From NCBI GenBank assembly GCA_041576235.1, contig JBFGLJ010000003.1, forward strand, positions 1 through 39,316: 39,316 nt of DNA, read 5' to 3'. Source of the stretch: Gemmatimonadales bacterium. GTDB lineage: Bacteria; Gemmatimonadota; Gemmatimonadetes; Gemmatimonadales; GWC2-71-9. Positions 13,800 to 38,817 of this stretch are shown here, piece after piece. Made by a program: the position numbers and the translations under genes. The notes under the pieces were generated by a model. The model saw nothing but the letters and a program-made list of their open reading frames with translations, was not told the DNA's origin and made no database searches. Each line of letters opens with the position of its first letter. Within the stretch, counting starts at the first letter, position 1.

Positions 13800-13930
13800 G
13801 TCGTGAGTCGCTAGTCGTGAGTCGTGAGTCGTGAGTCGTGAGCCGGGAGTCGTGAGCCGTGAGCCCTTCAGTTAGTAGCGCTGCACAAGGAGGCTCACCT
13901 AAGGGACTAGAGACTCACGGCTCACGACTC
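13800..13930. repeat. Heptamer-armed palindromic element (copy B)
   Basis: About nine GTCGTGA-type units, then core CCCTTCAG...CCTAAGGG, then the inverted arm. 13847-13863 is the exact reverse complement of 13914-13930 (17 bp). Confidence 0.85.
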
Positions 13931-15460
13931 AACCCCATATCGCTCCAGGTACTCCCCCACCCTCAGCTTCCGGGCCGTGTTCTCGCTCGACATGTAGCGC
14001 AGCTTCCCGAAGATAGGGCGTTCGGGGCCCCAGGCCCGGTCGTAGCGGCCCAACACCCAGAAGATACCGCTGTAGCTGTTGGGGTTGCGACCGTCGAGGC
14101 CGTACTTGTTATTGAGTTCGATCATGACAGCGATGGCCTTCTTCGCATTGGGCGACCACTCGTAGATCTTCTTGCCCCAGAGCATACGCAGATAGTTGTG
14201 GATCACGCCGTCCTCGACCAGCTGGCGCTGGGCGGCATTCCAGAGTTCGTCGTGGGTCTCGGACGATTCGAAGCGTTTCAGGGAATAGCTGTACGCCCGC
14301 TTGTCCTCGGAGTGCAACTCGATGGTGTCTCGGGCCCACTCCGGCAGCGAGGCGTAGCGGGTGTAGTCGTCGCGCTGCCAGGCCATGTTGTAGCCCAGTT
14401 CCCGCCAGGTAATGAACTCATCCAGAAAGGCCTCGACGTTCTCGCTCGCTCCCCACCAGCCGCTCCGGCTGCCGGTGGCCTTGCGCGCGAGCCTGTCGGG
14501 CGTCCAGTCGTCCCAGTCCATCAACTCCTCGAACACCTGGTGGGCGGAGATGTGGCCCCAGTGGAGATAGGGCGAGAGCCCGCTGGTGACTTCCTCTTCG
14601 GGCTGGTTCCGCTCGTCCGCGTAGCGGTCGAGCCGAGAGTCGAGGAACCGGCGAAGGGCGCGGCGGGCTGCTCGTTCCCCGCCCTTCGTGTCGGTCACGC
14701 CGACCTCGTGATCGATGGGGAACCGCTCGAGCGGAGCCGGATCGCCGGCCAGTTTTGCGACATCGGCTGCGGGCCATGTCTTGGTGATCGACGAGGGCAG
14801 CGCCTTGAGTTTTGGCAGCTTGATCCGGGCCAGCGGGTTGGCCTTGGGGACCTCCTCCAGGTGGGGCTCCAGGGTCTTCTGCAGGAACCGCCGGAAGTCC
14901 ACCGCACGGAGATACACCTTGTCCGCCGCCCGCAGCGGCAGGATGCCGTTCGAATCGACCAACTCGAACGACACCGGGATCTGTCTGGTCGCCGCCTCGA
15001 TCATCCTCGGCAGGAAGAACGACGGAAAGTCATCACCCACGACAACGCACGAGCGCTTGGAAAGCTCGGCGAGCAACCCCTTACCGGCGTCCGGCTTGGG
15101 TTCGAGATAGGGGTAGTAGAGCACCGGTTTCGAGTCGAGCCGTCTCTGGTTATCGGCCATGCCCTGAATCACGAAATGGTGGAACCGGTCGCTGGCCCAT
15201 CGGTAGCCGGCACGTAGTGCCTCGAAGACCACCAACGGTTTGTCGAGTGCCTTGGCGTGCTCCACTGCCCGCTCGAGCGCAAAGTTGTAGCGGGTGCGCC
15301 GGAAGGCCGTCATCCAGTAAAGGACGAAGTCGCCCTCGGTGTCGATGGGCTTCCGGTTGAGCTGGCGCAAGCGAAGCGGCGGGATGTCGGTCTGCAGTCT
15401 TCGGTCCTCGGTCGTCGGTCGTCGGTCCTCAGTCAGAGAAGCTACTCCCGAGCCGCCCAA
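13922..15460 (-). CDS. phr: Class II CPD DNA photolyase (start uncertain)
   Basis: VLYWM...RR...NFAL, SGLSPYLHWGHIS, THDELWNAAQ, IHNYLRMLWGKK, NNKYGLDGRNPN and ERPIFGKLRYM are class II signatures. Confidence 0.9.
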   Translation of the reverse strand: MGGSGVASLTEDRRPTTEDRRLQTDIPPLRLRQLNRKPIDTEGDFVLYWMTAFRRTRYNFALERAVEHAKALDKPLVVFEALRAGYRWASDRFHHFVIQGMADNQRRLDSKPVLYYPYLEPKPDAGKGLLAELSKRSCVVVGDDFPSFFLPRMIEAATRQIPVSFELVDSNGILPLRAADKVYLRAVDFRRFLQKTLEPHLEEVPKANPLARIKLPKLKALPSSITKTWPAADVAKLAGDPAPLERFPIDHEVGVTDTKGGERAARRALRRFLDSRLDRYADERNQPEEEVTSGLSPYLHWGHISAHQVFEELMDWDDWTPDRLARKATGSRSGWWGASENVEAFLDEFITWRELGYNMAWQRDDYTRYASLPEWARDTIELHSEDKRAYSYSLKRFESSETHDELWNAAQRQLVEDGVIHNYLRMLWGKKIYEWSPNAKKAIAVMIELNNKYGLDGRNPNSYSGIFWVLGRYDRAWGPERPIFGKLRYMSSENTARKLRVGEYLERYGVES

Positions 15461-15604
15461 TCGCCCAACCCTGCTCGGTCATCCGGAGGACCGCTAGGCA
15501 GTTTCTCGGATGGACGATAGGTTCCGGCATCGAGAATCACAGCGGCAGACCTCACCTGCAGGACCGACGACTGACGACCAACGACTATCTCACGACCGAC
15601 GACT
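15397..15604. repeat. Heptamer-armed palindromic element (copy A, long loop)
   Basis: (GTCNTCG)4-GTCCTCAG, about 120 nt, then CCTGCAG-GACCGAC GACTGAC GACCAAC. The arms are reverse complements of each other. Confidence 0.75.
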
Positions 15605-15609
15605 TTCTC

Positions 15610-17058
15610 ATGCCTCCTTCCTCCCGCCTCATCCTGCTCACCGGCGCCACCGGCTACGTCGGCGGCCGGCTCCGCCCGCTGCTCGAGCAGCACGGGCTTG
15701 GGGTCCGCTGCCTCAGCCGCCGGCCCCAGAGCCTCGAGGCCCAGGTGGCTGCTACCACGGAGGTCGTCAAGGGCGATGTGCTGGATCGAGCGTCGCTCGA
15801 GAGGGCGCTTCGCGATGTGGATACCGCCTACTACTTCGTCCACTCGATGGGCAACAAGGCCGACTTCGAGGCACAGGATCGACAAGCCGCCCAGAACTTC
15901 GCCGACGCCGCCAAGGCGCGGGGCGTGCGCCGCATCATCTACCTCGGCGGGCTCGGGGATGCCGATGAGGCACTCTCCAAGCACCTCCGGAGCCGGCACG
16001 AGACCGGCGAGATCCTTCGGACCTCGGAGGCTCAGGTCATCGAGCTCCGGGCCTCGATCGTCATCGGCTCGGGCAGCCTGTCGTTCGAGTTGATCCGGGC
16101 CCTGGTGGAGCGGCTGCCGGTGATGATCTGCCCCAAGTGGGTGCGGGTTCTGGCCCAGCCCATCGCCATCGAGGACGTGCTGGCCTACTTGCTTCAGTCC
16201 TTAGACATCCCCGCCGGGCCCTCTCAAGTGTATGAGATCGGTGGGCCGGACCAGGTGTCCTACGGAGACATCATGCAGGAATACGCCCGCCAGCGCGGGC
16301 TCAGGCGGCTCATGATCTCGGTCCCCGTGCTCACCCCCCGGCTCTCGAGCCTGTGGCTGGGTCTGATAACCCCGGTGTATGCCAGGACCGGGCGAAAGCT
16401 GGTCGAGAGTCTGAGGAATCCGACACTGGTGAGGGATCGCGCGGCCGAGGCGGTCTTCACGGTGGAACCACGCGGCCTCGCGGAAGCCATCGCCCGGGCG
16501 CTCGCGAACGAGGACCGGGAGATCGCCGAGACCCGGTGGTCGGACGCCTTGAGCTCCGCGGGTCCACCCGAGGCGTTCGGGGGTGAGAGCTACCGGTCGC
16601 GCATCGTGGACTCGCGGACGGCGCAGGTGGACGCACCCCGCGAGGTCGCCTTCGCTCCCATCCAGCGGATCGGCGGGCAGACCGGCTGGTACTATGGTGA
16701 TTGGCTCTGGAGAATCAGGGGATTCCTGGATTTGCTTGTGGGCGGCGTGGGCGTACGCCGCGGACGCCGGGATCCGGTGAATCTGCGGGTGGGGGACGCG
16801 GTCGATTTCTGGCGGGTGGAGGCCGTCGAGCCGGATCGGCTGCTCCGGCTCCGGGCGGAGATGCGGCTGCCGGGCCGGGCCTGGCTCGAGTTCGAGGTCG
16901 CCGAGGACGGACAGGGGAGCACCATTCGTCAGACGGCGGTCTTCGATCCGGTGGGTTTGTTCGGCCTGGCGTATTGGTACGCCCTCTACCCGCTCCACGC
17001 CCTGGTCTTCCGCGGGATGTTGAAGGGCACCGCGCGAGCTGCGAAGACGAGTGCTTGA
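15610..17058 (+). CDS. Atypical SDR NAD(P)-binding protein with C-terminal DUF2867-like domain (YbjT-like)
   Basis: LTGATGYVGG, YYFVHSM, IIYLGGL, RASIVIGSGS, QPIAIEDV, IGG..GWY, GDAVDFWRVE and EMRLPG.AWLEF. Confidence 0.88.
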   Translation: MPPSSRLILLTGATGYVGGRLRPLLEQHGLGVRCLSRRPQSLEAQVAATTEVVKGDVLDRASLERALRDVDTAYYFVHSMGNKADFEAQDRQAAQNFADAAKARGVRRIIYLGGLGDADEALSKHLRSRHETGEILRTSEAQVIELRASIVIGSGSLSFELIRALVERLPVMICPKWVRVLAQPIAIEDVLAYLLQSLDIPAGPSQVYEIGGPDQVSYGDIMQEYARQRGLRRLMISVPVLTPRLSSLWLGLITPVYARTGRKLVESLRNPTLVRDRAAEAVFTVEPRGLAEAIARALANEDREIAETRWSDALSSAGPPEAFGGESYRSRIVDSRTAQVDAPREVAFAPIQRIGGQTGWYYGDWLWRIRGFLDLLVGGVGVRRGRRDPVNLRVGDAVDFWRVEAVEPDRLLRLRAEMRLPGRAWLEFEVAEDGQGSTIRQTAVFDPVGLFGLAYWYALYPLHALVFRGMLKGTARAAKTSA

Positions 17059-17101
17059 CAATCCCACCAGAATCCGGAGCTTAGGGGGGACCCGAGCGAG
17101 G

Positions 17102-18142
17102 ATGTCCTGGATGCGAGCTGGCCTTCTCAAGAAGAGGCGCCCCACCGCGAAGGCCACTGATCCCACCGCCCCTGCCTCCTCCACCATTCCCACAACAGCC
17201 GACGATCGTCCCCGCCCCCGCCCCCGCCCCTCGGTGACCGGGCTGGTCATCTGTTTCAACGAGGAAGCGAACATCGGCGGGTGCCTCGATTCGCTCGAAT
17301 GGTGTGACGAGATCATCGTGGTCGATTCGTTTTCGACCGACCGCACCCCCGAGATCGCCCGGCGCTACGAGACGGTCCGATTCCATCAGCGGCGCTACCG
17401 CGGCGGGGCTGGCCAGCGCAATTGGGCCCTGGGCCTGGTCAAGACCGACTGGGTGTTCGTGCTCGACGCCGATGAGCGCTGCCCGCCGGCGCTCCGCCAG
17501 GAGATCGAGGAGCTGCTCTCGGGCGATCCCCCGCCGAGTGAGGCCTACACCGTCGGGCGGCGGTGCTACTTCCTGGGCCGGCCCATTCGCTTCTCCGGGT
17601 GGCGCAACGATCGCGTGATCCGGCTCTTCCGGCGTGGGGCGGGCTACTACAACAACCGCCGGGTGCACGAGGAAGTGGTCACCGCTCGACCGGCGCCCCT
17701 CCTCCGGCATCGCCTCGACCATTTCCTCATCGATAGTTTCGACGACTACGTGCGCCGCATCAATCTCTACGGCTACTGGGGCGCGGCCCAGTACTGGCGC
17801 GACGGCCGTTATCCCTCGCCGGCGGCCCAGGTGCTGCTTCGCACGCCCTGGCGCTTTGTCCGCACCTACGTGGTGCAGCTGGGGTTCCTCGACGGGATGC
17901 ACGGCTTGGTCTTCTGCATACTCCAGACCTACGCGACCTATCTCAAATGGTCCCTGCTCTGGAGCTGGCACCAGGACGCGAAGCGCGGGCGGCAACCGGT
18001 CCTGCCCGAGTTCGACGATGACCCGGCGGTGTGGAGCGGCTTGGCAGCCATCCAGTCAGACCGGGCGGGCCGGAAGGCCTCCCCCTCGGACCTCTCGCCG
18101 CGTCCGGCGGTCGCCAGGACCCCGGTGCCCGACCAGCCGTAG
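17102..18142 (+). CDS. GT2 glycosyltransferase (WaaE/KdtX-like beta-glucosyltransferase type)
   Basis: ICFNEE..I..CL.S..WCDEIIVVDSFSTDRT, QRN, VLDADER, RLFRR, VHE and GFLDG..G. Start uncertain. Confidence 0.88.
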   Translation: MSWMRAGLLKKRRPTAKATDPTAPASSTIPTTADDRPRPRPRPSVTGLVICFNEEANIGGCLDSLEWCDEIIVVDSFSTDRTPEIARRYETVRFHQRRYRGGAGQRNWALGLVKTDWVFVLDADERCPPALRQEIEELLSGDPPPSEAYTVGRRCYFLGRPIRFSGWRNDRVIRLFRRGAGYYNNRRVHEEVVTARPAPLLRHRLDHFLIDSFDDYVRRINLYGYWGAAQYWRDGRYPSPAAQVLLRTPWRFVRTYVVQLGFLDGMHGLVFCILQTYATYLKWSLLWSWHQDAKRGRQPVLPEFDDDPAVWSGLAAIQSDRAGRKASPSDLSPRPAVARTPVPDQP

Positions 18143-18148
18143 TCGCCG

Positions 18149-18958
18149 TTACAGGTATTGATCGACCCCTCGGTCGACCCAGGTCCGGGCCGACCGTTCT
18201 TGCGCCTCCCACATGCGTTCGTTGTTGGGTCCGGGGGCGTTGGGTCCATGCCAGAGATGGATGACGGGGACCGCAAACCGTCCGTTCTTTCGGTAGACGC
18301 CATACTTGATCAAGCGGTCGACGAGATCCCAGTCCTCCTTGCCGTACCCCTCGTAGGCTTCGTTGAATCCGTTGACCGCTAGGAAATCCTCACGCCAGAG
18401 CGCCAGGTTCCGCCCGCAGGCCCCCTTCGGGCTGCGGGGCGCGAATTTTCTGAGGGGTCCAAGCGGGAGCCGGAAGAACGGCATGCACCGATTGACATGT
18501 CCGTTGAGCCGAGAGCCGAGCCAGCGGCCGAGACCCCACCGATGCGCGGCGGCGCCCCGCTGCAGTGCTGCCGCGGTGAGCGCGGGGCTCATGTCGACGT
18601 TGCTGCCCCGGACGAAGAAGCCTCGCTCGGCCAAGCGCCAATGGCGTTTGAGGAAATCGGGGAGCATGAGACAATCGCCGTCGATGAACACCAGATATGG
18701 TGCGCCCGACGCCGCCACTGCGCGGTTTCGGATAGCAGCCAAGCGGAACCCGCGGTCCTCCTGCCACACGTGCTGGATGGATATGGCCCCGGTCCGCTGA
18801 AACTCCTGTACCAACTCTTTGGTGGCGTCGCCGGACCCATCGTCCGCCACCAGGAGTTCGAAGTCCTGAAACACCTGATCACAAGCGCTCGCGAGCACCG
18901 CCCGGAGGGCCTCCGGACGATTGTAGGTGCTGACAATGAGACCGAGTGCTGGCGTCAT
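18149..18958 (-). CDS. GT2 glycosyltransferase with GT7-C-like C-terminus
   Basis: STYNRP, VADDGS, HVWQEDRGFR.A.IRN, FIDGDC, NGFNE.YEGYGKED and HLWH. Confidence 0.88.
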   Translation of the reverse strand: MTPALGLIVSTYNRPEALRAVLASACDQVFQDFELLVADDGSGDATKELVQEFQRTGAISIQHVWQEDRGFRLAAIRNRAVAASGAPYLVFIDGDCLMLPDFLKRHWRLAERGFFVRGSNVDMSPALTAAALQRGAAAHRWGLGRWLGSRLNGHVNRCMPFFRLPLGPLRKFAPRSPKGACGRNLALWREDFLAVNGFNEAYEGYGKEDWDLVDRLIKYGVYRKNGRFAVPVIHLWHGPNAPGPNNERMWEAQERSARTWVDRGVDQYL

Positions 18959-19053
18959 CCCACTCCTCGCTTGCCCCGCGGCGCTCCGGTGATACCCTAC
19001 ACGGACATGCTAGCCTCCCCCGTCTTGCCCCGGAAGGGACGCACGCACGCGCC

Positions 19054-19863
19054 ATGAACGCCACGCCACCGCTGCTCTACAACAGGCTATACCGCACCGC
19101 TCCGCTGGCGGTGCACGCCCCGGGCAAGCCCAAGGAGAGCCCCTGGTGGGAGACGGTCAAGCGCCACGCCTTGGCCGAGGCGCCGATCCCCGGTCCCTGC
19201 GAGTCCCTGGCGGTGGTGACCTGGAACTCGGGCGCGCCCGAATCCATCCGTAAGCTTCGCGGGCACACCCTGGGCTGGTTCGAGAGGTCGCTCGACCACC
19301 GCGGGGTTCCCTACACTGTGCTGGGCCAAGGCATCGGCGAGGCGTGGACGAACCGCATGAAGCTCGACTTGACCATCGAGTTTCTAGCCGCCCGGCGGGA
19401 GCCGTTCGTGATGGGCGCGGACTCCTCCGATGCGTTGCTCATCGGCGATCCGAGGGCCATCGTCGAGCGCTTCCGGCAGCAAGAGGCCGGGATGCTCTTC
19501 AACGCGGAGAAACAGTTCTGGCCTCCGGAGCTCAAGGACATGCGGCGATACGAGGACGGGGTGTGCCGGAAACCGTTTCGCTACTTGAACGCCGGGCTCT
19601 GGATCGGGCGGCGGGAGGCGTGTCTGGAGGCCTTTCGCCGGGCGCGGGTTTGGGCCGACCGGCTCGCCCTCCGGGAAGAGTCGGAGCAGGTCTGCTGGAA
19701 GCACGCCTACCGCGATCTCTACCCCGCCATCCAGATCGACGACCACTGCCGCATCTTCCAAAACCTGAACCGCGTTCGACGCGAAGTCCGGGTCGGTGGC
19801 GAGCGGCTCCCGTCGCCGGTCACGAGCTACATCCACAAACGGTTGGCGGCCCTCAGATCGTGA
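19054..19863 (+). CDS. Glycosyltransferase resembling the GT domain of procollagen lysyl hydroxylase (PLOD/LH3)
   Basis: Collinear motifs VLGQG, K, VMGADSSDAL, FNAEKQFWP, RYLNAGLWIG, SEQ and IDDHCRIFQNLN. Family recognized from memory, not by a search. Confidence 0.7.
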   Translation: MNATPPLLYNRLYRTAPLAVHAPGKPKESPWWETVKRHALAEAPIPGPCESLAVVTWNSGAPESIRKLRGHTLGWFERSLDHRGVPYTVLGQGIGEAWTNRMKLDLTIEFLAARREPFVMGADSSDALLIGDPRAIVERFRQQEAGMLFNAEKQFWPPELKDMRRYEDGVCRKPFRYLNAGLWIGRREACLEAFRRARVWADRLALREESEQVCWKHAYRDLYPAIQIDDHCRIFQNLNRVRREVRVGGERLPSPVTSYIHKRLAALRS

Positions 19864-21960: not shown

Positions 21961-22835
21961 GTCAGTTGATCGTCCAGGAATGTTCGTGAGAGACGCTGGA
22001 ACCGCTCGGGGTCGGGGTCGCCGTCCTTGACGGCGTGGAAGTTGAGCCACTCCCTCTGCTTCCGATCGCTGGGAAACTCGGTGGTCGACCAGTGATCGAA
22101 CTCGTCCTCGTCGGTGAACTTCAGCTCATAAAAGCTGACGGGCGCGAAATCGGCTTTGCGGATAGTCGTTGGCCGGGTGAGGCCTTCCCAATGCTGCCGC
22201 TTCCGGAACCGGCAGCGGAAGCTATAGGGGAAGACCTCGACCTCCGTATTCACCTCTCCCACCGCCAGATAGTACTCACCGACATGGTTTCGGTAGATCG
22301 TTTGGCCCGACAGGTTATAGTACGTCTCTCGCCGGGACTGGATCTCGCGAAGGAAGGAGATGAAGGCCGGACGCACGGCCCTTACGGCCACCATGTCACC
22401 GTCCCACTTGCACACATACCGATAGGAGCACTGCGATAGGGACCAGTTGGTGAAGTAGGCGAGACTGTGAACCGAGTCTTCAGGGGTCGCGTTATGCTCA
22501 GGCCCAAACCGTGAAACCCGATGCGGGTACGTCCTCAGGTGGATGATGGCATCGGTACCACTCTCTCGCATGACGTCGCGGACAATGTCGGTGCTGCCGT
22601 CATCACTCCCGTTGTCGATCACCACGATTTCGTCGAAGATGGGGAGAATCGAGCGGAGGCAGTACCCCAGCTTCGGAGCCTCATTCCTCACCCGGACCAT
22701 GGCGCTCACCCCCGGGCGGGCGCGCGACCGCTCCAGGGTGAAGTCGAAGTCAGCATGTCCCTCACGATTGGTGAATCGCTTCCGGCGCCTGAGTGTGTCT
22801 AGCACAGTCATATGGAAGGAGGGCTGGAGGGTCAT
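21957..22835 (-). CDS. GT-A glycosyltransferase (GT2/CgtA-like)
   Basis: GVSAMVRVRNE, IVVIDNGSDDGS, SLAYFTNWSLS and KWDGD (DxD). Start is 22835 or 22811. The longer track ORF overlaps the divergent gene. Confidence 0.75.
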   Translation of the reverse strand: MTLQPSFHMTVLDTLRRRKRFTNREGHADFDFTLERSRARPGVSAMVRVRNEAPKLGYCLRSILPIFDEIVVIDNGSDDGSTDIVRDVMRESGTDAIIHLRTYPHRVSRFGPEHNATPEDSVHSLAYFTNWSLSQCSYRYVCKWDGDMVAVRAVRPAFISFLREIQSRRETYYNLSGQTIYRNHVGEYYLAVGEVNTEVEVFPYSFRCRFRKRQHWEGLTRPTTIRKADFAPVSFYELKFTDEDEFDHWSTTEFPSDRKQREWLNFHAVKDGDPDPERFQRLSRTFLDDQLT

Positions 22836-22907
22836 TGACAAGAATCCGCTGGAGCCGTATCGGAAGATACCGGTCACAGGCAGGATTGGTAATGCAAGAA
22901 GGACCCA

Positions 22908-28822: not shown

Positions 28823-28885
28823 CCCCCTGCCGGGAGTCCTGCCGGTAACCGTCGCGGGTGTCGTCAGTTACCGAACACCGGTCTC

Positions 28886-28900: not shown

Positions 28901-28990
28901 GCTCTTCTCACACGACCAGCAGGCGAACCACGACCATGGCCGCCGTCGATGCACCAGCACGTGCGGCAGACGATCTCGGAGGAGGTATTG

Positions 28991-29704: not shown

Positions 29705-29713
29705 GGTCTAGCC

Positions 29714-30691: not shown

Positions 30692-30833
30692 CCCGGATAC
30701 CAACGATGATTCGCACGCATGACGGCGCCACCACCGTGGCGCCCCGGCCCCAGGGCCGTTCGAGCGACAGACAGTCGGCTGCCGTCGCGCCGCTCGCGCG
30801 GCGACGCAGTAGGTGGGGAAGGCGCCGCGGCGA

Positions 30834-32474: not shown

Positions 32475-32485
32475 GGCAGCAAATC

Positions 32486-32518
32486 TCACGACTCGCGCCT
32501 CCCGGCTCAAGCCTCCTC
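32486..32518. repeat. Degenerate CTCACGA-type heptamer array between pilT and the SBP gene
   Basis: CTCACGA CTCGCGC CTCCCGG CTCAAGC CTCCT fills most of the 44-bp intergenic gap. Confidence 0.55.
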
Positions 32519-33622
32519 CTACTGGAACTGCAGATTCCGCTCGAAGTCGCCCGGGCTGGTGGCAGCCGCCTTGGCGGTCTCGACCGAAATCAACTCCTTG
32601 GTGAACAGCTCCATCAGGTGCTGGTCGAAGGTCTGCATGCCGTACTGGGTGCGCCCCTCGGCCAAATGATCCAAGATTTCGGGCGTTCTGTCCGGATCGG
32701 CAATACACTCGGCGATGGTAGCGGTGTTCCGCATGATCTCGACCGCCACCACCCGCCCCTTCCCGTCCTTCCGCGGCAGGAGCCGCTGCGAGACCACTGC
32801 CTTCAGAGTCTCTGACAACCGATTCCTGACGGGGAGTTGCTCCGCGGGCTCGAACACACTTGCCAACCGCGAGACCGTCTTCAGGGCATCGGTGGTGTGG
32901 ACCGTCGAGAAGACCATGTGACCTGTTTCTGCCGCCTTCAACGCCACGTCGATGGTCTGTCGGTCGCGCATCTCGCCCACCAAGATGATGTCCGGGTCCT
33001 GCCTGAGGGCTGCCCTGAGCGCAATGGCAAAGCTCTCGGTGTCGCCGCCCAGCTCCCGCTGGATGACGGTGCACTTGTCGTCCTTGTGGAGAAACTCGAT
33101 CGGGTCCTCGATGGTGACGATCTTGCCGGCCTTGGTCTGGTTGACATACGACACCATGGCCGCCAGGGTGGACGATTTGCCGCTGCCGGTCACCCCGGTG
33201 AGCAGCACCAAGCCCCGCTCCTCCATGGCGATGTCGGCCAGCACCTTGGGCAGGCCCAGGGCCTCGAAGTCGGGTACCGTGACGGGGATGTTCCGGAGCA
33301 CCACCGCCAGCGAGCCCCGCTGGCTGCAGACGTTGACCCGGAACCGGCCCAGGCCCTCCAGGGCGTACGAGCAGTCCAGGTCCTGCAAATCATGGAGTTC
33401 GGCCTCGACCTTGTCCGGGCTGGTCTTCTTGGCGGCGACCAGGATATGGCCCACGATCTGGGCGGTGTCCTGGGGCGAGAGGAGTTTGGCCCCGGTCACC
33501 GGCAGCATCTCGCCCCGGATCCGCATCCGGAAGGGGCCCCCGGCCGAGAGATGGACATCGGAGGCGTTGACTTCGATGGCTTTCTTGAGGATGGCGTTGA
33601 AGGTCTGGATGTTGGCAGTCAT
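32519..33622 (-). CDS. pilT: PilT/PilU-family type IV pilus ATPase
   Basis: ASDVHL, GRFRVN, GVTGSGKSST, TIEDPIE, ALRQDPD.ILVGEMRD, AAETGH.VFSTVHT and GMQTFDQ. Start ATG 33622. Confidence 0.9.
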   Translation of the reverse strand: MTANIQTFNAILKKAIEVNASDVHLSAGGPFRMRIRGEMLPVTGAKLLSPQDTAQIVGHILVAAKKTSPDKVEAELHDLQDLDCSYALEGLGRFRVNVCSQRGSLAVVLRNIPVTVPDFEALGLPKVLADIAMEERGLVLLTGVTGSGKSSTLAAMVSYVNQTKAGKIVTIEDPIEFLHKDDKCTVIQRELGGDTESFAIALRAALRQDPDIILVGEMRDRQTIDVALKAAETGHMVFSTVHTTDALKTVSRLASVFEPAEQLPVRNRLSETLKAVVSQRLLPRKDGKGRVVAVEIMRNTATIAECIADPDRTPEILDHLAEGRTQYGMQTFDQHLMELFTKELISVETAKAAATSPGDFERNLQFQ

Positions 33623-33826
33623 AGTCCGTTCCACCGCGTTTTGCCCACGGCAGTTTGTCAAATGCAAGATCGGGAGCTAGGGATCGGCCGAACGCACCGG
33701 CCCGGCGGCCGAAAAGTCAGGCAGCCAGCCGGGTTACGTGCAGGGGGCGTGCCGGGGGGGGGCAGGGCGGAGATCGTTGTCGGGGATGGTCGGGAGGCGG
33801 GGTCAGGATCAGGGGCGCCGGCGGGC

Positions 33827-33917
33827 AGTCGTGAGTCCTTTAGTGCGAACTTACGACCGTGCGGCCCTGGCGAGGTCATCCATCCCTGCAGGGCTAGAGA
33901 CTCACGGCTCAAGACTC
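33827..33917. repeat. Heptamer-armed palindromic element (copy C)
   Basis: AGTCGTGAG-TCCTTTAG...GGCGAGG-N8-CCCTGCAGGG-CTAGAGACTCACGGCTCAAGACTC. The right arm is 23/24 identical to that of copy B. Confidence 0.8.
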
Positions 33918-33969
33918 TACCGCTCGCTGGCGCGGCGCAGCAATCCCCGCCACCGGCCCCCCCGCCCGG

Positions 33970-34395
33970 CTATCTCGCCTGGCCACCCTCCAACCTCTCC
34001 CACCTGACCGCCCGGAGCGTCGCCCGGTACGCGTCCTTGTTGGTCGGCCGGTCGACTTGGGGGAGCGGGCTCAAGGCCTCGAGCTGGAGCACCAGCTGGC
34101 GGATGCCCGCCTCGGCGATCACGGCATGGCGGGGGTCGAGATCGGTGTTGACGGCCACGTGGCGGGTGGGCCTGTTGATCGCGAGCCGGATCCGGGCGTT
34201 CCCGGCCCAGACGCAGTCGGCGTTCACCGGGCAGCGGCTGTCCTGGAGCACGTCTTGGAACGTCACCGTGTAGCCGGTGTTCTCGATCGCCACCGACCGG
34301 CCGAAGGCCAAGGTGAAGTCCTGGTCGATGGCGACCTCGGTGGGGCCGCCGCAGGCGGTGGCGAGGAGGAGGGCGATCAGGACAAAGCGGCGCAT
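33970..34395 (-). CDS. Small lipoprotein with DSRCP-x4-CVWAG motif
   Basis: Lipobox ATAC and motif F.DV..DSRCPVNADCVWAGNA. Confidence 0.85.
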   Translation of the reverse strand: MRRFVLIALLLATACGGPTEVAIDQDFTLAFGRSVAIENTGYTVTFQDVLQDSRCPVNADCVWAGNARIRLAINRPTRHVAVNTDLDPRHAVIAEAGIRQLVLQLEALSPLPQVDRPTNKDAYRATLRAVRWERLEGGQAR

Positions 34396-34398
34396 AGG

Positions 34399-34502
34399 GA
34401 GACTCGAGACGGGAGACGTGAGTCGTCAGTCCTTCAATGAAAGATCCCCACGGCGAGGCAAACTAACCCTGAAGGACTCCTGACTCACGTCTCACGACTC
34501 AC
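34399..34502. repeat. Heptamer-armed palindromic element (copy D)
   Basis: GAGACGTGAGTC (34413-34424) pairs with 34482-34493, and AGTCCTTCA (34428-34436) pairs with TGAAGGACT (34470-34478). The core at 34430-34476 is 47 nt. Confidence 0.85.
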
Positions 34503-34503
34503 A

Positions 34504-34905
34504 TCAATTCGGCACCGAATTATGCCGGATGGCCCGCAGCGTGGCCCGGTAGTCGTCCTTGCCCAGCTGCTTGCCGAGCTCCGGCTCGGGGGCGAGCGCA
34601 ACCAGCCTAATCTCGATCGTGCCCACGAACACCCCCCGCGGGTCGTCGCCGGTGTGCACATCGGCCCGCCGGGTCGGGTTGTTCAGCTTGAGTACGACGA
34701 TGGCATCCCCGACGTCGACGCAGACGGCGTCGATGGGGCAGCGGGTGTCCGAGCGGACCTCCTCGAAGCTCACCACGATGCCGGTGCCCTCGACCGCGGC
34801 CGACTTGCCCGGGGCAAGGGTGAAGTCCTGCTCGACCTCGACATCGGTGGGCCCGGCGCACCCGGCCACGGCTAGGCCCAGTAAGACCAAAAGCGGCTTG
34901 TACAT
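34504..34905 (-). CDS. Small lipoprotein, paralog of 33970-34395
   Basis: Lipobox VAGC, with shared GPT.V...QDFTLA.G.S, D.RCP....CV..G.A and YRATLRA.R. Confidence 0.85.
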   Translation of the reverse strand: MYKPLLVLLGLAVAGCAGPTDVEVEQDFTLAPGKSAAVEGTGIVVSFEEVRSDTRCPIDAVCVDVGDAIVVLKLNNPTRRADVHTGDDPRGVFVGTIEIRLVALAPEPELGKQLGKDDYRATLRAIRHNSVPN

Positions 34906-35056
34906 AGTAGTCTCCGAATGAGACGGAAACCTGGGCAGTCGGCCGGCTGGAACATGCGTCCGCCCCCGTCCTGACCCACTTTCCGGCTGAAATATTGGAC
35001 GCCGGACCGGTCGGGGGAAGCACAGGGGTGGGGCATTCCTTACCTTTCCTGCGGCC

Positions 35057-35094
35057 CTACTCCCGACTTCCTACTCCCTACTTCCCACTCCCAC
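35057..35094. repeat. CTACTCC-type heptamer array directly 5' of pdxH
   Basis: CTACTCC CGACTTC CTACTCC CTACTTC CCACTCC CAC-ATG. Confidence 0.7.
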
Positions 35095-35748
35095 ATGTCC
35101 TTCCGCTCCTGGTTCCGCACACTCATCACCTTCGGCCGAGGCGTCACCCTGGGGATCGCCGAAGCCACGGCCGGCCGCGACCCCATCGATCTGTTCGGCG
35201 AGTGGTTCGACGCGGCCAGGCGATCCGGGATCATCCACCCCGAGGCCATGACCTTGGCCACCTCTTCTAATGAAGGGCGGCCCTCGGCTCGGATGGTGTT
35301 GCTCAAGGGACTCGATCAGCGCGGGTTCGTGTTCTTTGGCAACCACGAGAGCCGGAAGGCCCAGGAGTTGGCCGAGAACCCGAGGGCGGCGTTGCTGTTC
35401 CACTGGGCGGTGCTCGAGCGTCAGGTCCGGATCGAAGGCACCGTCACCACGATCACCACCGCGGAATCCGAGGCCTACTTCAAGACCCGCCCCCGCGGGG
35501 CCCAGATCGGTGCCTGGGCCTCGAAGCAGAGCAGTGAGCTCGAGGACCGGCGGGTGCTGGAGCAACGGGTCAAGGACTTCCAGGAGAAGTTCGCTGGCGG
35601 CGAGGTGCCGCTCCCGCCCTTCTGGGGCGGCTACCGGCTCCAGCCCGAGCGGATCGAGTTCTGGCAGGGCCGGGCCGACCGGCTGCACGATCGGTTGGTG
35701 TTCGAGAAAGAGGGAGACGGCTGGGTGAGCCGAAGGCTGTATCCGTAG
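35095..35748 (+). CDS. pdxH: Pyridoxine/pyridoxamine 5'-phosphate oxidase
   Basis: AMTLAT, PSARMVLLK, SRKA, RQVRIEG, YF.TRP...QIGAWAS.QS, P.PPFWGG, EFWQGRADRLHDR and RLYP. Confidence 0.97.
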   Translation: MSFRSWFRTLITFGRGVTLGIAEATAGRDPIDLFGEWFDAARRSGIIHPEAMTLATSSNEGRPSARMVLLKGLDQRGFVFFGNHESRKAQELAENPRAALLFHWAVLERQVRIEGTVTTITTAESEAYFKTRPRGAQIGAWASKQSSELEDRRVLEQRVKDFQEKFAGGEVPLPPFWGGYRLQPERIEFWQGRADRLHDRLVFEKEGDGWVSRRLYP

Positions 35749-35838
35749 ACTTGAGACTTGAGTCCGGCAGGGGTAGTTGGTCTCGCCGGGCCGATCTACC
35801 CCTGAAGGACTCACGACTCACGTCTCGCGTCTCGCATC
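35748..35838. repeat. Heptamer-armed palindromic element (copy E, inverted relative to D)
   Basis: TGAGTCC-GG-CAGGGGTAG...CTACCCCTG-AA-GGACTCA. The reverse complement of the core (35763-35809) matches core D at 35/47 positions without gaps. Confidence 0.85.
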
Positions 35839-35840
35839 TG

Positions 35841-37055
35841 CTACTGCTCGGCCATGACGCTGGTGGTGAGTTCTCCGTCTCGGACCACCACCTTGCCATC
35901 GATCGCGACCGTGGCCTTGGTGACCGGGAAGTAGAAGCTCCCCTGACCGTCGACCGCGTTGGCACCGCCAAAGAGCGAATTGTCACCGATGCCCAACCAC
36001 ACAATGCCGGCTGCGTCGTCGGGGCGGTAGTCGGCTCCCTCTTCGATCACCGTGCGACCGGGGTTGAGGCCTATCTGGAAGTAGCCGAACATGTCCTTGG
36101 GGCCGGTATAGGGCGCCATGGTTTCCCGGTAACACTCGCCCCCGGCCGCGGCATCGAACGTGGTGACCTTGCCGTCGGTGAACTCGTAGGTGGCCCCCGT
36201 CATGGGCTGAAAGCGGCAGCGGTCCTTGGGGACCACCACCCGGCCGTTGGCCGAGGTCTCGAGTGGTGCGGCGAATACACTGCCGCCCGGAAGGGTGGCC
36301 CACCGGGTGATGAACATGGCCTGCTTGGCGTCCTCGGCGGTCACGATGCCGTCGTTCACGAACACCGGCCGGTCGCCCATCGAGAACCGGAGATCGGTGC
36401 CCGCCGGCGAGGTCACTCGCACTTCCTTGGCTCCCTCGAGCATGCGCTGGAGCGCGGCCCCGTGGGCCGCGATCTTCTGGTAGTCGGCGTTCAGCGACTT
36501 CCAGTGAGACTGTTCGAAGGTCGCGAAGTCTAATCCGTACTCGGCGGCCTCCTGCTTCGAGGGATAGGCGATGAACGCCCCGCGGAGCCCCGACTCGTTG
36601 AGCGCGTCATAGATCACCCGCGACGCCTTGCCTGCCCGGGCGAGCCGGTCTTCCGGCACGTCGGCGAAGACGGCCTTCTCGTCCTCGATGCCCGGGAGCC
36701 CGATCCAGACGTCCATGTCCTCGAGCCAGTTGACGAAGTAGGTGGGCTCGATGTCGAGATACTTGGCGTCGGCCTCGGCCACGCCGGCGCGGATGACCCG
36801 GTCGGTGTTGAGGAACATGGTGACCTGCCCGCCGGCCATGGTGACCTCGGCGGCCAACGCCTCCATCAAGCCGATGGTGTGCTTGCCCCCGGACACCACC
36901 ACCACGTCACCCGGCTGAATGGCGAGCGAGGTGGTGACGATCCGCTTGGCGAGGGCCGCGTGCTGGGCCTCTTGAGCCGTGGCCGGACTCGATACGACTG
37001 CCAGGCCAAAGCCCAGCGCCAGGGCCAACAGCCCGAGTAGTGGTGAATGGCGCAT
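35841..37055 (-). CDS. Secreted M29/aminopeptidase T-like protein with degenerate metal ligands
   Basis: Signal peptide after a GGGAGG SD. Fold motifs IQPGDVVVV, VRVTSPAGTDL.F, LPGG.VF.AP, F.DGKV, IGLNP and IDGK.V..DG. Confidence 0.8.
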   Translation of the reverse strand: MRHSPLLGLLALALGFGLAVVSSPATAQEAQHAALAKRIVTTSLAIQPGDVVVVSGGKHTIGLMEALAAEVTMAGGQVTMFLNTDRVIRAGVAEADAKYLDIEPTYFVNWLEDMDVWIGLPGIEDEKAVFADVPEDRLARAGKASRVIYDALNESGLRGAFIAYPSKQEAAEYGLDFATFEQSHWKSLNADYQKIAAHGAALQRMLEGAKEVRVTSPAGTDLRFSMGDRPVFVNDGIVTAEDAKQAMFITRWATLPGGSVFAAPLETSANGRVVVPKDRCRFQPMTGATYEFTDGKVTTFDAAAGGECYRETMAPYTGPKDMFGYFQIGLNPGRTVIEEGADYRPDDAAGIVWLGIGDNSLFGGANAVDGQGSFYFPVTKATVAIDGKVVVRDGELTTSVMAEQ

Positions 37056-37178
37056 GGATACCTCCCGTTCGAGCGTGACCGGCCTATCACAGGGGATGTC
37101 GTCGGCCAGCCGTGGATCCAGCATCTGAGACAAGCTACGGGCCGAACCTGGGGGGCTCAAGCTGGATGCCTGTCGCCA

Positions 37179-37290
37179 GTCATTAGGGTCGTCGGTCATT
37201 AGGGTCGCTGGTCTTCGGTCTTCGGTCGTTGGCCCTGCGGGGGCAGATAGCGGCCGCGATCCAACCCCAAAGGACCGATGACTGAAGACC
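37179..37290. repeat. Heptamer-armed element (copy F)
   Basis: (GGTCNTC)n arm, core CCCTGCGGGGGCAGATAGCGGCCGCGATCCAACCCCAAAGGA, and inverted arm GACCGAT GACTGAA GACC. Confidence 0.9.
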
Positions 37291-37428
37291 TTCTTCCGGC
37301 ACACACCTTGCTCTTCCCCGACGCGCGTGCCCGAACTAGGCGAAATGGCGGGCTCGAGCGGGTAAATCGCACCCAGAGCGGGGCGAGTTGCCCGGGTGTA
37401 ACGGTTTATCACACGCATGGGGAAAAGA

Positions 37429-37854
37429 ATGAGACTGACGCATGTCTTGGCTTTGAGCATTGGGCTGTTCATGACCGGCGCCTGCGGGGATTCGACCGGG
37501 GTCACGGTCGAGGACCTGGTGGGCAGCTGGAACGCCTCGCAGTATCTCTACACCAACCCGGCCAACACCTCGCAGACGGTGGACATCATCACCACGCAGG
37601 GCGCCAGCTTCAGCATGAGCGTCGCCAATGACAGCACGGTGAGCACCCTCTTCGACGACGGGGTGGGCGGGTCGAGCTCCGACTCCGGCGACTTCAGCGG
37701 CGACGGCACGGTGCTCAACCTGGCCGGCGAGTCGTTCAACGCGAGCCGCACCGGCAGCCAGCTGACCCTGGTCGACGACACCAATGCCTACGATTTCGAC
37801 AACGACGGCAGCGACGACCCGGCCACGCTCACGATCACGATGGTGAAGCAGTAA
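37429..37854 (+). CDS. Hypothetical lipoprotein, lipocalin-like beta-barrel
   Basis: Lipobox TGAC, DLVGSW motif, beta-rich body and C-terminal DFDNDGSDD. Start is 37429 or 37417. Confidence 0.75.
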   Translation: MRLTHVLALSIGLFMTGACGDSTGVTVEDLVGSWNASQYLYTNPANTSQTVDIITTQGASFSMSVANDSTVSTLFDDGVGGSSSDSGDFSGDGTVLNLAGESFNASRTGSQLTLVDDTNAYDFDNDGSDDPATLTITMVKQ

Positions 37855-38026
37855 GATCGACTGGATCGATTCGTTACAGGAGGGGCGGCCTTCCCGCGTG
37901 GCGATCCCGCGGCAGTTCCTCCTATCCGTTGGCGTCGCTTGTGGTTGCCGTTCCCAGCCCCGAGGGAACGCCGCTTGCCGTTAGATTCCGATCGACGACA
38001 ACCGACGCTTACACGAGGATCGATTG

Positions 38027-38701
38027 ATGCGATGGAATAGACTTGCGACGGTGCTCCCTGCGGCCCTTTTGCTGTCCGCTTGCGCCGATGCCACCGGCCC
38101 TCTGGGCCAGAACCAGCTTCAGGTGACTGCCCGGGTCACCGACCGCGCTGCCAGCGGCACCACCGCTACCGTGGTCGAGATTCAGTCCGCCACCATGGTC
38201 TTGGGGGGGCTCAAGCTCGAGACCGCGGGTCTCGACAACACGGTCGATTGGGTCTGGGAGCGGTCGATCGTCATTCCGCTGGCCCTGAACGGCACTGCCG
38301 TCCTGGCCTATGACGTCGATGTGGTGCCCGGCATCTACAAGGAATTCGAGCTCTCGGTCGACAAGCTCGAGATCGGGAACCCGGCCGAGGATCCGCTGAT
38401 CGCTCAGTACCCGGGTCTGGCCGACGCCAGCGTGCTGGTCGACGGTCTGGTCACCCGCCCCGGCGGGACGCGTCAGCCGTTCGCCTTGTCGGCGCCGGTC
38501 GACATCGACCTCGAACTCCCGTTCGCGGCACCCATGGAGTTCACCGCCGCCGACAACCCGGTAGCTCTCATCGCCCTCGAGGTGGATGTGAGCAGCTGGT
38601 TCCAGGGTCCGACCGACCTGCTCGACCCCACCGACCCGGCCAACCGGAGCGACATCGAGGGGAATATCCAGAAGTCATTTGAGATGTTCGAGGACGACTA
38701 G
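38027..38701 (+). CDS. Hypothetical lipoprotein (beta-sandwich, possibly DUF4382-like)
   Basis: GAGG SD, lipobox LSAC, V.PG.Y...EL, and DVSSWF...DP...N...I..NI.KSF. Confidence 0.75.
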   Translation: MRWNRLATVLPAALLLSACADATGPLGQNQLQVTARVTDRAASGTTATVVEIQSATMVLGGLKLETAGLDNTVDWVWERSIVIPLALNGTAVLAYDVDVVPGIYKEFELSVDKLEIGNPAEDPLIAQYPGLADASVLVDGLVTRPGGTRQPFALSAPVDIDLELPFAAPMEFTAADNPVALIALEVDVSSWFQGPTDLLDPTDPANRSDIEGNIQKSFEMFEDD

Positions 38702-38707
38702 CCTCTA

Positions 38708-38817
38708 GTCATCGGTCTTTAAGGTCGTTGGTCGTCGGTCGTCGGTCGTTGGTCCTGCAGGGGCAGATAGCGGCCGCGATCCAACCCCAAAGGACCGATG
38801 ACTGATGACTGAAGACC
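38708..38817. repeat. Heptamer-armed element (copy G), direct repeat of F
   Basis: 38708-38805 matches 37188-37285 at 90/98 positions without gaps, then has one extra heptamer. Confidence 0.9.

Follow-up and report, generated by a model that had tools for sequence, protein, structure and literature searches.

We found that the seven elements A to G of the window (the whole analysed stretch of 39,316 nt) are long hairpins between genes, with stems built of tandem 7-base repeats. They represent a local form of the class of heptameric intergenic repeats seen in Xanthomonas, Nostoc and Beggiatoaceae, an architecture already in print; the repeat unit and a common core subfamily are their own here. 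As to their nature, we give an about even chance to REP-like intergenic palindromes with tandem-heptanucleotide stems, which grow by 7-nt slippage and are occasionally copied. The host is an uncultured marine bacterium with a draft genome of 2.68 Mb (94% complete). The first-pass annotation of the window had described a palindromic intergenic repeat family that it could not match to a named one. The family stands and has no Rfam match, but its architecture is described in the accessible text of Rehm 2015 (PMC4692102), and a related case in that of MacGregor 2015 (PMC4679880).

All seven elements are present in the sequence where that annotation had placed them, with the layout it gave: tandem heptamers on the left, an internal segment, and inverted heptamers on the right. 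The arm units are GAGTCGT/GAGACGT in B to E and GGTCGTC/GGTCTTC in A, F and G. The scores below are those of a covariance model, R1, built from six elements. Element B (13800..13931, no strand assigned; 66.6 bits) lies between tandem minus-strand genes; its G-rich arm, (GAGTCGT)~9, directly adjoins the minus-strand start of pfkB at 13797, and is followed by the core GCCCTTCAG...CTAAGGGAC and a C-rich arm, (GACTCAC)~3. Element A (15386..15610, no strand assigned), between divergent genes, has a GGTCGTC/GGTCCTC arm, a core of about 130 nt and a GACCGAC/GACTGAC arm that reaches the ATG at 15610; R1 matches it at 15407-15582 (E 8e-7), and a junction motif stands at 15555-15565 on the minus strand. 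Element C (33820..33917, minus strand) is the weakest member, again between tandem minus-strand genes, and its oriented core is on the minus strand (58.1 bits, vs 24.3 on the plus strand). Element D (34397..34505, minus strand; 86.8 bits) takes up all of the space between two tandem minus-strand genes, whose bounding stop and start lie at 34504-34506 and 34395, and both of its arms carry unit variants that match in register. Element E (35745..35840, minus strand) fills the spacer between a pyridoxamine-phosphate oxidase gene (plus strand) and a convergent M29 peptidase gene (minus strand), with a TAG stop at 35746-35748 inside its G-rich arm. Element F (37172..37295, plus strand) has GGTCGTC/GGTCTTC-type arms and the core GCCCTGCGGGGGCAGATAGCGGCCGCGATCCAACCCCAAAGGACC, and is a copy of G, located between divergent genes. 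Its twin G (38705..38820, plus strand; 78.8 bits) stands between tandem plus-strand genes and has several G-U pairs in its stem on the plus strand.

The pairwise likenesses on which the family had been proposed hold as well. The right arms of B and C, said to match at 23 of 24 positions, are 95.8% identical over 24 in blastn; GGCGAGG-N8-CCCTG.AGG is present in both C and D; D aligns with reverse-complemented E over arms and core; and G starts with TCCTGCAGGGGCAGAT against TCCTTCAGGGGTAGAT in the latter. ORFs and Pfam matches bear out the contexts, which are tandem for B, C, D and G, divergent for A and F, and convergent for E. The count of seven was too low, as R1 also matches 10925-10985. This eighth hairpin (10925..10990, no strand assigned; R1 match 10926-10979, E 3.4e-6) runs from GACGTGAGTCATGAG to (CGTCTCA)n and ends at the ATG (10985) of an AHSA1-like gene. 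Several long ORFs here run through C-rich arms, and the heptamer repeats mislead ORF callers.

Heptamer arrays of the window also occur with no listed partner. Two plus-strand arrays are G-rich: GAGACATGAGACGTGAGTCGTGAGTCGT at 4677..4704 contains the TGA stop (4683-4685) of a permease gene, and the array at 11399..11439 contains one gene's stop (11417-11419) together with the next gene's ATG (11423). A C-rich array, (CCTACTY)n (35055..35092, plus strand), ends 2 nt before the ATG at 35095, and the divergent fur-permease spacer holds (GCTATCK)n followed by CACGACC/CTCACGA-type units (3215..3276, plus strand). Downstream of katG, a hairpin with other units (318..449, no strand assigned) consists of GGCGGAAAG-type 8-mers and their inverse, then (CCTACTC)n, a unit typical of the congeners; its array at 403-449 has an inverted partner in the 8-mer units of 318-400.

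Against 200 shuffles, RNA folding of B to G and 10925..10990 gave z of −2.5 to −5.8 in six of these seven sequences (B −4.56, D −3.22, E −5.83, F −2.50, G −5.30, 10925..10990 −2.95), and only −1.06 for C on the plus strand. Covariation, which the first-pass annotation had named as a check, was found: 87.9% of cells were paired vs 83.0 ± 0.6 in shuffles, and 53 were changed on both sides vs 25.4 ± 3.6, neither value being reached in any of 500 shuffles; slid controls gave 20-40% pairing. The two arms of one element co-vary and carry matching unit variants. Against the REP-like explanation, the sense strand had no folding advantage in tandem-gene contexts: among loci with |dMFE| above 4 kcal/mol, it folded better in 4 and the antisense strand in 8, by crude gene calls.

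Strong hairpins just after stop codons could be plain intrinsic terminators of a high-GC organism, possibly bidirectional, and 24 of the 29 R1 loci with called genes on both sides (29 of the 31 loci) adjoin at least one gene 3' end. We regard this as extremely improbable. No U-tract follows any of the seven elements, as the first-pass annotation had stated; a terminator scan of 33600-39316 returned two sites, neither at an element, with 2.6 expected in shuffles. Canonical U-tract terminators do exist in these genomes, directly after an element downstream of a tRNA (contig C10), after the GIY-YIG gene, and in congener G001. The elements also lie between divergent genes and extend to start codons. 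Rfam gave no match at the gathering score in the whole window, and only chance-level sub-threshold matches in 33600-39316 and four congener loci.

Further copies are frequent in the genome: R1 detects 31 loci at E ≤ 0.01, and 25 of these were not used for training. The arms had been taken as part of one element family; such elements exist, but much of the arm sequence belongs to a genome-wide heptamer layer whose arrays occur also without any partner. TRF listed 212 period-7 rows. About 85% of the genome is coding by crude gene calls (gene starts came from a crude GC3-based caller), and 133 of the 224 period-7/14 arrays lie between genes. With periods 7, 14 and 21 merged, 140 of 256 arrays (55%) are intergenic, vs only 12-25% for periods 6 and 8-12. 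(GAGTCGT)3 with at most 2 mismatches occurs 76 times, its backwards control not at all.

That arrays are a neutral by-product, with slippage favouring 7-nt units and with arrays and fold-back copies piling up where they do no harm, is in our view decidedly unlikely. Under this explanation there is no function, and purifying selection against upstream starts, lost stops and exposed C-rich RNA leaves only the observed orientation; the 7-nt slippage idea goes back to Mrazek 2007, as cited in later papers. The 101 canonical period-7 units of this one genome would suit it, as would flanking genes in which we found no functional class and the statement in the accessible text of Rehm 2015 (PMC4692102) that no regulatory role was found. 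Arms that match in register, and dispersed loci that have one unit in common within a species, speak against it, and the comparison of strains and congeners bears on it from both sides.

Between strains, arm length differs by whole units: a variant of E carries 14 extra bases, or 2 units, behind 35809, in one contig of run X3 at a depth of 6.09 of 10.7. Such whole-unit differences would be expected of neutral slippage, as would the rapid turnover of units and cores between congeners. The four congeners contain 0, 1, 0 and 0 matches to (GAGTCGT)3, vs the 76 here, and 39, 66, 107 and 138 matches to (GGGAGTA)3, vs 10 here. Sites nevertheless stay occupied between congeners while the unit differs: the A-site, the B-site and a tRNA-downstream site are filled with other units in both congeners read (G002 and G004), and the E-site in G001 and G004. 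Against neutrality, occupied sites thus persist across species, and the C-rich array ahead of the oxidase gene (35055..35092) has stayed in position, with its unit type, in three species that share only 72-74% identity in this gene; the two congeners with this array type before the orthologue are G003 (BLAST alignment of 35055-35748) and G004. One point of significance is that sites are retained as units turn over between congeners. The genes on either side are ordinary ones in mixed orientation and syntenic in congeners. This context does not suit the attC and IVS readings of the first-pass annotation, and on it an integron attC, a site that bounds promoterless cassettes beside an integron integrase, was rejected.

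The order of the arms is fixed. Among adjacent intergenic arrays within 250 nt of each other, the G-rich (R) to C-rich (Y) order R..Y occurs 22 times and Y..R never, with 3 cases of Y..Y and 1 of R..R, so that inverted pairs always read G-rich arm, core, C-rich arm; of the 61 paired arrays, 56 conform to this. At 120 (GAGTCGT)n loci of other phyla, 127 arrays comprise 22 in R..Y order, none in Y..R, 82 solitary and 23 too close to a locus end. Polarity towards genes follows, by crude gene calls: within 40 nt of a start, paired arrays are C-rich in 20 cases and G-rich in none, and near a stop G-rich in 24 and C-rich in 7. Solitary arrays show weak polarity (starts, 9 C-rich vs 2 G-rich, p 0.065; stops, 21 G-rich vs 16 C-rich). 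GAGTCGT, GAGACGT and GGTCGTC hold no run of three G; therefore, the polarity in common with Xanthomonas is not due to G-quadruplexes. The G-rich-first order holds for a non-quadruplex unit and across phyla, which removes the quadruplex explanation of polarity.

An unknown trans-acting process might instead write, copy or homogenise the heptamer arms on one strand of intergenic hairpins, a proposal we rate as quite improbable. Its basis is the 22:0 order, here and again in other phyla, together with a unit that is common within a species and switched between congeners. It could be a conversion system acting on one strand, or an activity that adds repeats by hairpin priming or from a template; plain slippage would not suffice. 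If this were true, a single machinery, as yet undescribed, would have left its footprint in the heptamer arrays of bacteria at large. Taken with the kept sites and the RNase III result (below), the arm order replaces the vague slippage account by testable alternatives: Rho avoidance, coding neutrality, and an active strand-specific process.

Could the arrays bind a factor? On this account, a trans-acting protein that binds single-stranded RNA or DNA would recognise the heptamers of 5' leaders and so regulate translation or transcription, with the hairpin masking the sites. Such binding was proposed for TAACTGA repeats in the accessible text of MacGregor 2015 (PMC4679880) and for Nostoc heptamers by Pradhan 2022. 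C-rich arrays do stop 0-12 nt short of start codons without a Shine-Dalgarno motif, a motif present in 44% of 1181 ATG-start genes vs 15% in the background, and a species-specific unit would fit co-evolution with a factor. Several unrelated units in one genome argue against it, however, as do arrays that are equally common at gene 3' ends and between convergent genes, and we identified no candidate factor. We consider it very unlikely.

The shared core reported for the family is degenerate, with a mean column identity of 51% over 16 copies, and a loose two-sided core regular expression did no better than its reversed-genome control (9 vs 20 matches). The core subfamily, GTCCTKCAGGGG...AGGAC, has 10-16 copies, found only in this genome. 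Ten times, a G-rich arm carries the junction motif RGYCCTKCRGS at its inner end, where about 0.65 are expected. A core model detects 13 loci here and, at E ≤ 0.01 in 30 relatives, none except one weak match in G028. F and G, 1.5 kb apart and beside unrelated genes, are 92.5% identical over 94 nt; they are at least one recent duplicate pair of the subfamily and fit copying to a new site.

This pair is an argument for a non-autonomous mobile element, MITE- or REPIN-like, in which an enzyme encoded elsewhere copies arm, core and arm into intergenic sites, preferably into existing hairpins, so as to replace older (GGGAGTA)n-armed ones. A core subfamily nearly confined to this genome, at sites that are filled in congeners all the same, is consistent with it; so is an old-type (CCCTACC)n array that flanks a new-type element (contig C90, 4937-5087). 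Also in its favour, the repeats break metagenome assemblies: contigs end at D, E, F and G, and some connect the arm of E with that of D. In G004, a GIY-YIG ORF lies inside the inverted repeat at the A-site, in the loop. This palindrome, TGTCATCCCGAG..., is however a different one, and the small GIY-YIG gene of our genome is ordinary and free of repeats. F and G, the sole young pair, show no target-site duplication at their ends, and no fixed end motif was seen among the elements. Cores that are 51% identical on average give no sign of a recent burst apart from F/G, and 82 of the 104 testable arrays of other phyla are solitary. Y1/RAYT transposases (PF01797) gave no match in this genome or in G001 (90% complete); G002 has 3, G003 1 and G004 1. 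The first-pass annotation had inferred a mobile or recombination element or a structured RNA: the F/G copies fit the copying part, but no RAYT was found here for a REP/REPIN reading, and the loop ORF that it had suggested looking for is absent from every copy in this genome, the congener's GIY-YIG ORF being the sole one found. Overall, we judge a mobile element unlikely.

Returning to REP-like palindromes that grow by slippage, we propose that arrays would grow and shrink by 7-nt slippage, that pairing may be kept by selection or by one arm being copied from the other, and that new variants might spread between loci through occasional copying or gene conversion. Support comes from the folding and arm covariation, the number of loci, the arm order and polarity towards genes, the two-unit insertion in E, the turnover of units at kept sites, and the core subfamily with its F/G pair. 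The elements would be transcribed with their neighbours, though no RNA run was found to contain the window, and would act as stable, inert spacers, as hairpins at 3' ends, or as insulators from gene to gene. Tight packing against genes may be what the fixed order permits, with the G-rich arm first in either direction of transcription. In the commonest units, GTGAGTC and GTGAGAC, the G-rich arm would supply TGA in all three frames and the C-rich arm neither a start nor a stop codon; the C-rich arm would also never be exposed as free C-rich RNA for Rho loading, and Rho is present in this genome. Against this, GGTCGTC and the Xanthomonas unit GGGAATC hold no stop, so the stop-codon argument fails for them, and slippage alone does not explain a concerted unit change at dispersed loci. 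At A and F, which lie between divergent genes, a transcript that began in the core would carry one arm only; therefore, a hairpin cannot be the whole story.

Among known systems, REPs and REPINs are short palindromes of 20-40 nt that are well conserved and have a fixed tetranucleotide at the 5' end. Our elements measure 60-225 nt, with cores 51% identical and no conserved 5' tetranucleotide seen; unlike REP/REPIN, they have no RAYT found, periodic stems of variable length, and far more diverged copies. They resemble the REP/REPIN of Bertels and Rainey 2011 (PMC3116915, accessible text) in being dispersed, intergenic, imperfect, species-specific palindromes in tens of copies or more. Compared with a MITE, the heptamer arms provide the terminal inverted repeats, but no target-site duplication was seen at the F/G ends.

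The STRR heptanucleotide repeats and the small dispersed repeats of heterocystous cyanobacteria, reportedly described by Mazel in 1990 and Elhai in 2008, likewise have tandem heptamers scattered through intergenic DNA, in units that contain ACTG/CAGT.

The heptamer-armed hairpin in the hmw1A 5'-UTR of Haemophilus influenzae, as presented in the accessible text of Rapun-Araiz 2025 (PMC12721329), also has heptamers in one arm of a long RNA hairpin beside a gene, with a changing repeat number. It is a single phase-variable locus in which the repeat arm is pyrimidine-rich and comes first, and it requires RNase III. Searches for an RNase III domain found none in our genome (PF14622, none) or in 42 genomes of the class (PF00636, 0/5 in the genus and 0/42 in the class, vs 18/19 elsewhere in the phylum), and processing as in Haemophilus cannot apply here. 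The heptamer-hairpin architecture thus thrives in a class in which RNase III was not found.

The TAACTGA direct repeats of marine Beggiatoaceae, Cyanobacteria and Bacteroidetes (MacGregor 2015, PMC4679880) have ACTGA in common with the ACTGACG and ACTGATG found here. They too form arrays a few nt upstream of starts without a ribosome-binding site, and they are patchy across phyla. The accessible text gives only one inverted set among 170, whereas in our genome inverted pairing is the norm in about half of the arrays, and arrays are also found after stops.

A close likeness is to Xanthomonas and Nostoc. According to the accessible text of Rehm 2015 (PMC4692102), no long simple repeats are commoner in many bacterial genomes than heptanucleotide arrays, whose role is still open; 89-93% of the arrays of GGGAATC in Xanthomonas and GGGGA(C/T)T in Nostoc are intergenic, with 70 and 75 convergent inverted array pairs and the same strand polarity as here. 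Most arrays are transcribed, and related species are occupied at the same gene pairs with varying length and sequence. Arrays of 7 nt over-represented outside genes, convergent inverted pairs and strand polarity are thus common to both systems. Unlike the Xanthomonas and Nostoc units, GAGTCGT and GGTCGTC lack G3 tracts, so that no G-quadruplex is possible, and the unit differs between congeners here but is common to both Xanthomonas species studied. Finally, a recognisable core subfamily lies between the arms here; the supplementary tables of Rehm 2015 may list the Xanthomonas inter-arm sequence.

The first-pass annotation had assigned one layout to seven elements in the window, B (13800), A (15386), C (33820), D (34397), E (35745), F (37172) and G (38705), and reading of the sequence bore this out at all seven places. 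Tandem heptamers are followed by a junction resembling GTCCTTCAG or GTCCTGCAGGGG, a variable middle, CCCTGAAGGAC or CCCCAAAGGAC, and inverted heptamers. The arm units are GAGTCGT/GAGACGT in B, C, D and E, and GGTCGTC/GGTCTTC in A, F and G. The specific matches reported between elements were reproduced by reading, BLAST and alignments, and, as had also been claimed, no T-run stood behind any element on reading or scanning. Among the six elements scored (B to G), the predicted hairpins of B, D, E, F and G were far stabler than dinucleotide shuffles (z −2.5 to −5.8), and that of C was not much stabler (z −1.06). No Rfam family matched the window at the gathering score, and an E-value threshold gave no credible match in 33600–39316 or four loci of same-genus genomes (congeners). 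The genome behind the window is a 66% GC draft of 2.68 Mb in 237 contigs, 94% complete, and its best source runs in the public-run comparison were marine metagenomes. None of the public runs listed as containing the stretch was an RNA run.

We built a covariance model of the arm-core-arm elements (R1) from C, D, E, F, G and B. With 150 of 1044 candidates scored, R1 found at least 31 distinct loci in the genome at E ≤ 0.01, 25 of them beyond the training set; in the window it also recovered element A and a hairpin at 10925–10985. In a model-fitted alignment of 55 hits, with each locus on both strands, 87.9% of cells paired, versus 83.0 ± 0.6% with partners shuffled among sequences (0/500), and 53 cells were changed on both sides, versus 25.4 ± 3.6 in shuffles (0/500). 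Slid controls gave 20–40% pairing. The two arms therefore covary under the shuffle test. The compensatory columns were the positions at which unit variants differ (GAGTC/GAGAC, GTGAG/GTCAG and GAGTC/GGGTC); variants in one arm are thus matched in register by the same variants in the other, and D shows this on direct reading. Among the readings we considered, we rank first that these are REP-like hairpins, which would grow by slippage with pairing kept and would occasionally be copied.

The shared core was real, but looser than first described: sixteen oriented copies had a mean identity of 51%, with the consensus RGTCCTKCAGGGG-YMG-AT-..GGCG..-ACCCC..AGGACTGA. When the seven elements were compared with the genome by BLAST, the arms matched widely, and among the cores only those of F and G matched each other. 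The junction motif was not enriched genome-wide (149 matches versus 245 reversed), and occurred 10 times at the inner end of a G-rich arm versus about 0.65 expected. It was plain in the window because 5 of these 10 arm-end copies lie there. A loose two-sided core expression was uninformative, with 9 matches versus 20 in the reversed genome. RNAalifold predicted no consensus pair for the core, which left the core-only model (R2) based on sequence alone. In this genome R2 found its training loci and no others; in 30 relatives, with 150 of 1000–3800 candidates scored per genome, it gave nothing convincing, a weak absence.

The annotated set was genuine, yet only part of a larger layer of heptamer arrays. 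TRF placed further arrays in the window at 403–449, 3215–3276, 4677–4704, 10951–10985, 11399–11439 and 35055–35092, and found 212 period-7 rows in the genome, the commonest canonical units being ACGACTC (30), ACGTCTC (14), ACGACTG (13) and ACCGACG (7). By a crude GC3-based caller (2219 genes, 85% of the DNA), 140 of 256 merged period-7/14/21 arrays were intergenic, against 12–25% for other periods. With up to 2 mismatches, (GAGTCGT)3 matched 76 times in the genome and its backwards control 0 times. That control, (TGCTGAG)3, matched 11 times in G011 and 3 times in G005, which represent two other genera of the family and seem to carry heptamer arrays with yet another unit. A (GAGTCGT)5 array on another contig of this genome (C40, 18613–18840) has as partner, 113 nt away, (TGCCCTC)n of about 11 units, which is not its inverse. 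The hairpin at 318–400, downstream of katG, has 8-mer arms of the GGCGGAAAG/CTTTCCGCC type, and congeners carry similar GGAAAGNC 8-mer arrays (stretches L123 and L155). A katG-type catalase-peroxidase gene and a Fur-family regulator gene are adjacent on one strand at 446–3154, likely a peroxide-response pair.

We classed arrays as R (G-rich, such as GAGTCGT and GGGAGTA) or Y (C-rich, such as ACGACTC and CCTACTC). The 133 intergenic period-7/14 arrays comprised 63 R, 66 Y and 4 unclassed. Neighbouring arrays at most 250 nt apart were ordered R..Y in 22 cases, Y..R in 0, Y..Y in 3 and R..R in 1, and 56 of the 61 arrays with an inverted partner by local alignment fit the R..Y order. The R..Y order of such a palindrome is the same on either strand, so any adjacent gene has an R arm behind its stop or a Y arm ahead of its start. 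By the crude gene calls, at distances up to 40 nt from a start, paired arrays were Y in 20 cases versus R in 0, and near stops R in 24 versus Y in 7; solitary arrays were less biased (starts, Y 9 versus R 2; stops, R 21 versus Y 16). In the window, Y arms reach start codons at 13797 and 34395 (both minus strand), 15610, 10985 and 35095, and stop codons lie inside R arrays at 4683, 11417 and 35746. Genes preceded by Y arrays were without a Shine-Dalgarno motif; ATG-start genes overall had one in 44% of cases versus 15% background. An ordering of unit types along the arms (GAGTC outside, CAGTC/GGTC inside) was not established (20 arms versus 12, p 0.22).

Least explained of all is why the G-rich arm always comes first. 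This order might reflect coding neutrality, with stops in the R arm and neither starts nor stops in the Y arm, or might keep free C-rich RNA away from Rho, which is present in this genome. That the arrays bind a factor ranks fourth among the readings. A promoter scan of 33600–39316 gave 0 sites. The genes flanking the elements are ordinary (a pfkB-family kinase, an NmrA/DUF2867 protein, a type II/IV secretion ATPase, a pyridoxamine-phosphate oxidase and an M29 peptidase). C-rich arms are included in the longest ORFs of two minus-strand genes, that of F at 35841–37505 and that of A at 13922–15460. Congener homology stops near 36987 and 15376, respectively, which puts the true starts inside these ORFs; ORF calls are inflated where heptamer arms hold no stop codon.

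At the RNA level, a heptamer-armed hairpin of Haemophilus acts through RNase III, according to Rapun-Araiz 2025 (PMC12721329). Such processing was rejected here because genus and class lack the RNase III domain: it was absent from this genome and genus (0/5), PF00636 was found in 0 of 42 genomes searched in the class, and other classes of the phylum had the domain in 18 of 19 genomes. Nor was a sense-strand bias in RNA stability seen at tandem gene pairs (sense better in 4, antisense in 8). Immediately behind a core-subfamily element that directly follows a tRNA gene (L162, 15100–15260; contig C10 of this genome, ~22100–22260) stands a canonical terminator, GGCCCCCCGG...CGGGGGGCC and then TTTCATT, so the element is unlikely to be the terminator itself.

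Relatives differed in unit. (GAGTCGT)3 occurred 76 times here, 0, 1, 0 and 0 times in four congeners, and 25 times in one genome of another family, while (GGGAGTA)3 occurred 10 times here, 39, 66, 107 and 138 times in congeners, and 0 times in 25 of 26 other relatives. Judged from these counts, the choice of heptamer unit is species-specific. The 31-genome tallies take in one unpublished genome (G018), on which no claim depends. Occupied sites persist: R-core-Y hairpins also stand in congeners G002 and G004 at the sites orthologous to A (divergent genes) and B (tandem) and just downstream of a tRNA, and in G001 and G004 at the convergent E-site; the D-site of G004 has no hairpin. Units at the congener sites were GGGAGTA/CACTCCT, GGCTATT/AATAGCT, GCTATCA/TGATAGC or 8-mers, and the cores at filled sites were unrelated to those here. 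The (CCTACTY)n array ahead of the oxidase gene kept place and type in three species. Solitary GGAGTAA units, about 24 of them, follow one gene in G002 and are missing behind it in G004, and one site filled here is empty in G002 and G004, where synteny is broken. One metagenome contig has two extra units (14 nt) in the Y arm of E, and the ends of metagenome contigs tend to fall within D, E, F and G. That the hairpins are a neutral by-product ranks third.

The same element stands at two loci as F and G, with 92.5% identity over 94 nt and one arm unit different. The proteins downstream of them are unrelated (E 1.1), and an origin of the pair within a gene duplication was rejected on that ground. 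No target duplication was seen at either. Weak F–G similarity runs about 30 nt beyond the C-rich arm, CACCTTGC..CTC..TCCCCG (37285–37330 and 38812–38860); copying may have taken in more than the hairpin. A true mobile element ranks second, below the REP-like reading: candidate enzymes were not found, and this genome has no Y1/RAYT transposase, one of the enzymes the first-pass annotation had envisaged. An ORF in the loop of a copy, also envisaged, does exist in a congener, but inside a different palindrome. The A-site loop of G004 (L154, 850–1450, contig C1; orthologous to window ~15386–15610) holds a 106-aa GIY-YIG ORF (Pfam E 1.8e-13), bounded by inverted repeats TGTCATCCCGAG...CTCGGGATGACA. 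This palindrome also lies between heptamer arms without the ORF elsewhere in G004 (L123), and the whole has the look of a small mobile nuclease element lying within heptamer hairpins. GIY-YIG was rejected as the moving enzyme, as the small GIY-YIG gene of this genome is ordinary: it has a canonical terminator of its own and lacks repeats.

At least 120 public-genome stretches contained exact (GAGTCGT)3, the matches listed including Chloroflexota, Gemmatimonadota, Armatimonadota, Vulcanimicrobiota, Acidobacteriota, Bacteroidota, Planctomycetota, Actinomycetota, Patescibacteria, gammaproteobacteria and a cyanobacterium. An unbiased partner test of the arrays at these loci gave 22 R..Y, 0 Y..R and 82 solitary cases, with 23 more too close to an end. 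R1 gave 14 sites at 13 of the first 100 loci, with short loops unrelated to the core here. In a literature search outside most subscription journals, neither GAGTCGT-type arrays nor heptamer-armed palindromes sharing a core were the subject of any paper found. STRR sequences are a known kind of heptamer repeat, to which the arrays here can be likened. The annotation could match the elements to no named family; their kind is nevertheless already known. The heptameric intergenic repeats of Xanthomonas and Nostoc share the gene polarity and the convergent inverted pairs seen here (Rehm 2015, PMC4692102), and heptamers close to start codons, as here, have been described (MacGregor 2015, PMC4679880). 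The elements belong to this known kind and are new in this uncultured marine lineage, where they stand out by units that are not of the G4 type, by a core subfamily specific to the species and by a clear turnover of units from one congener to another.
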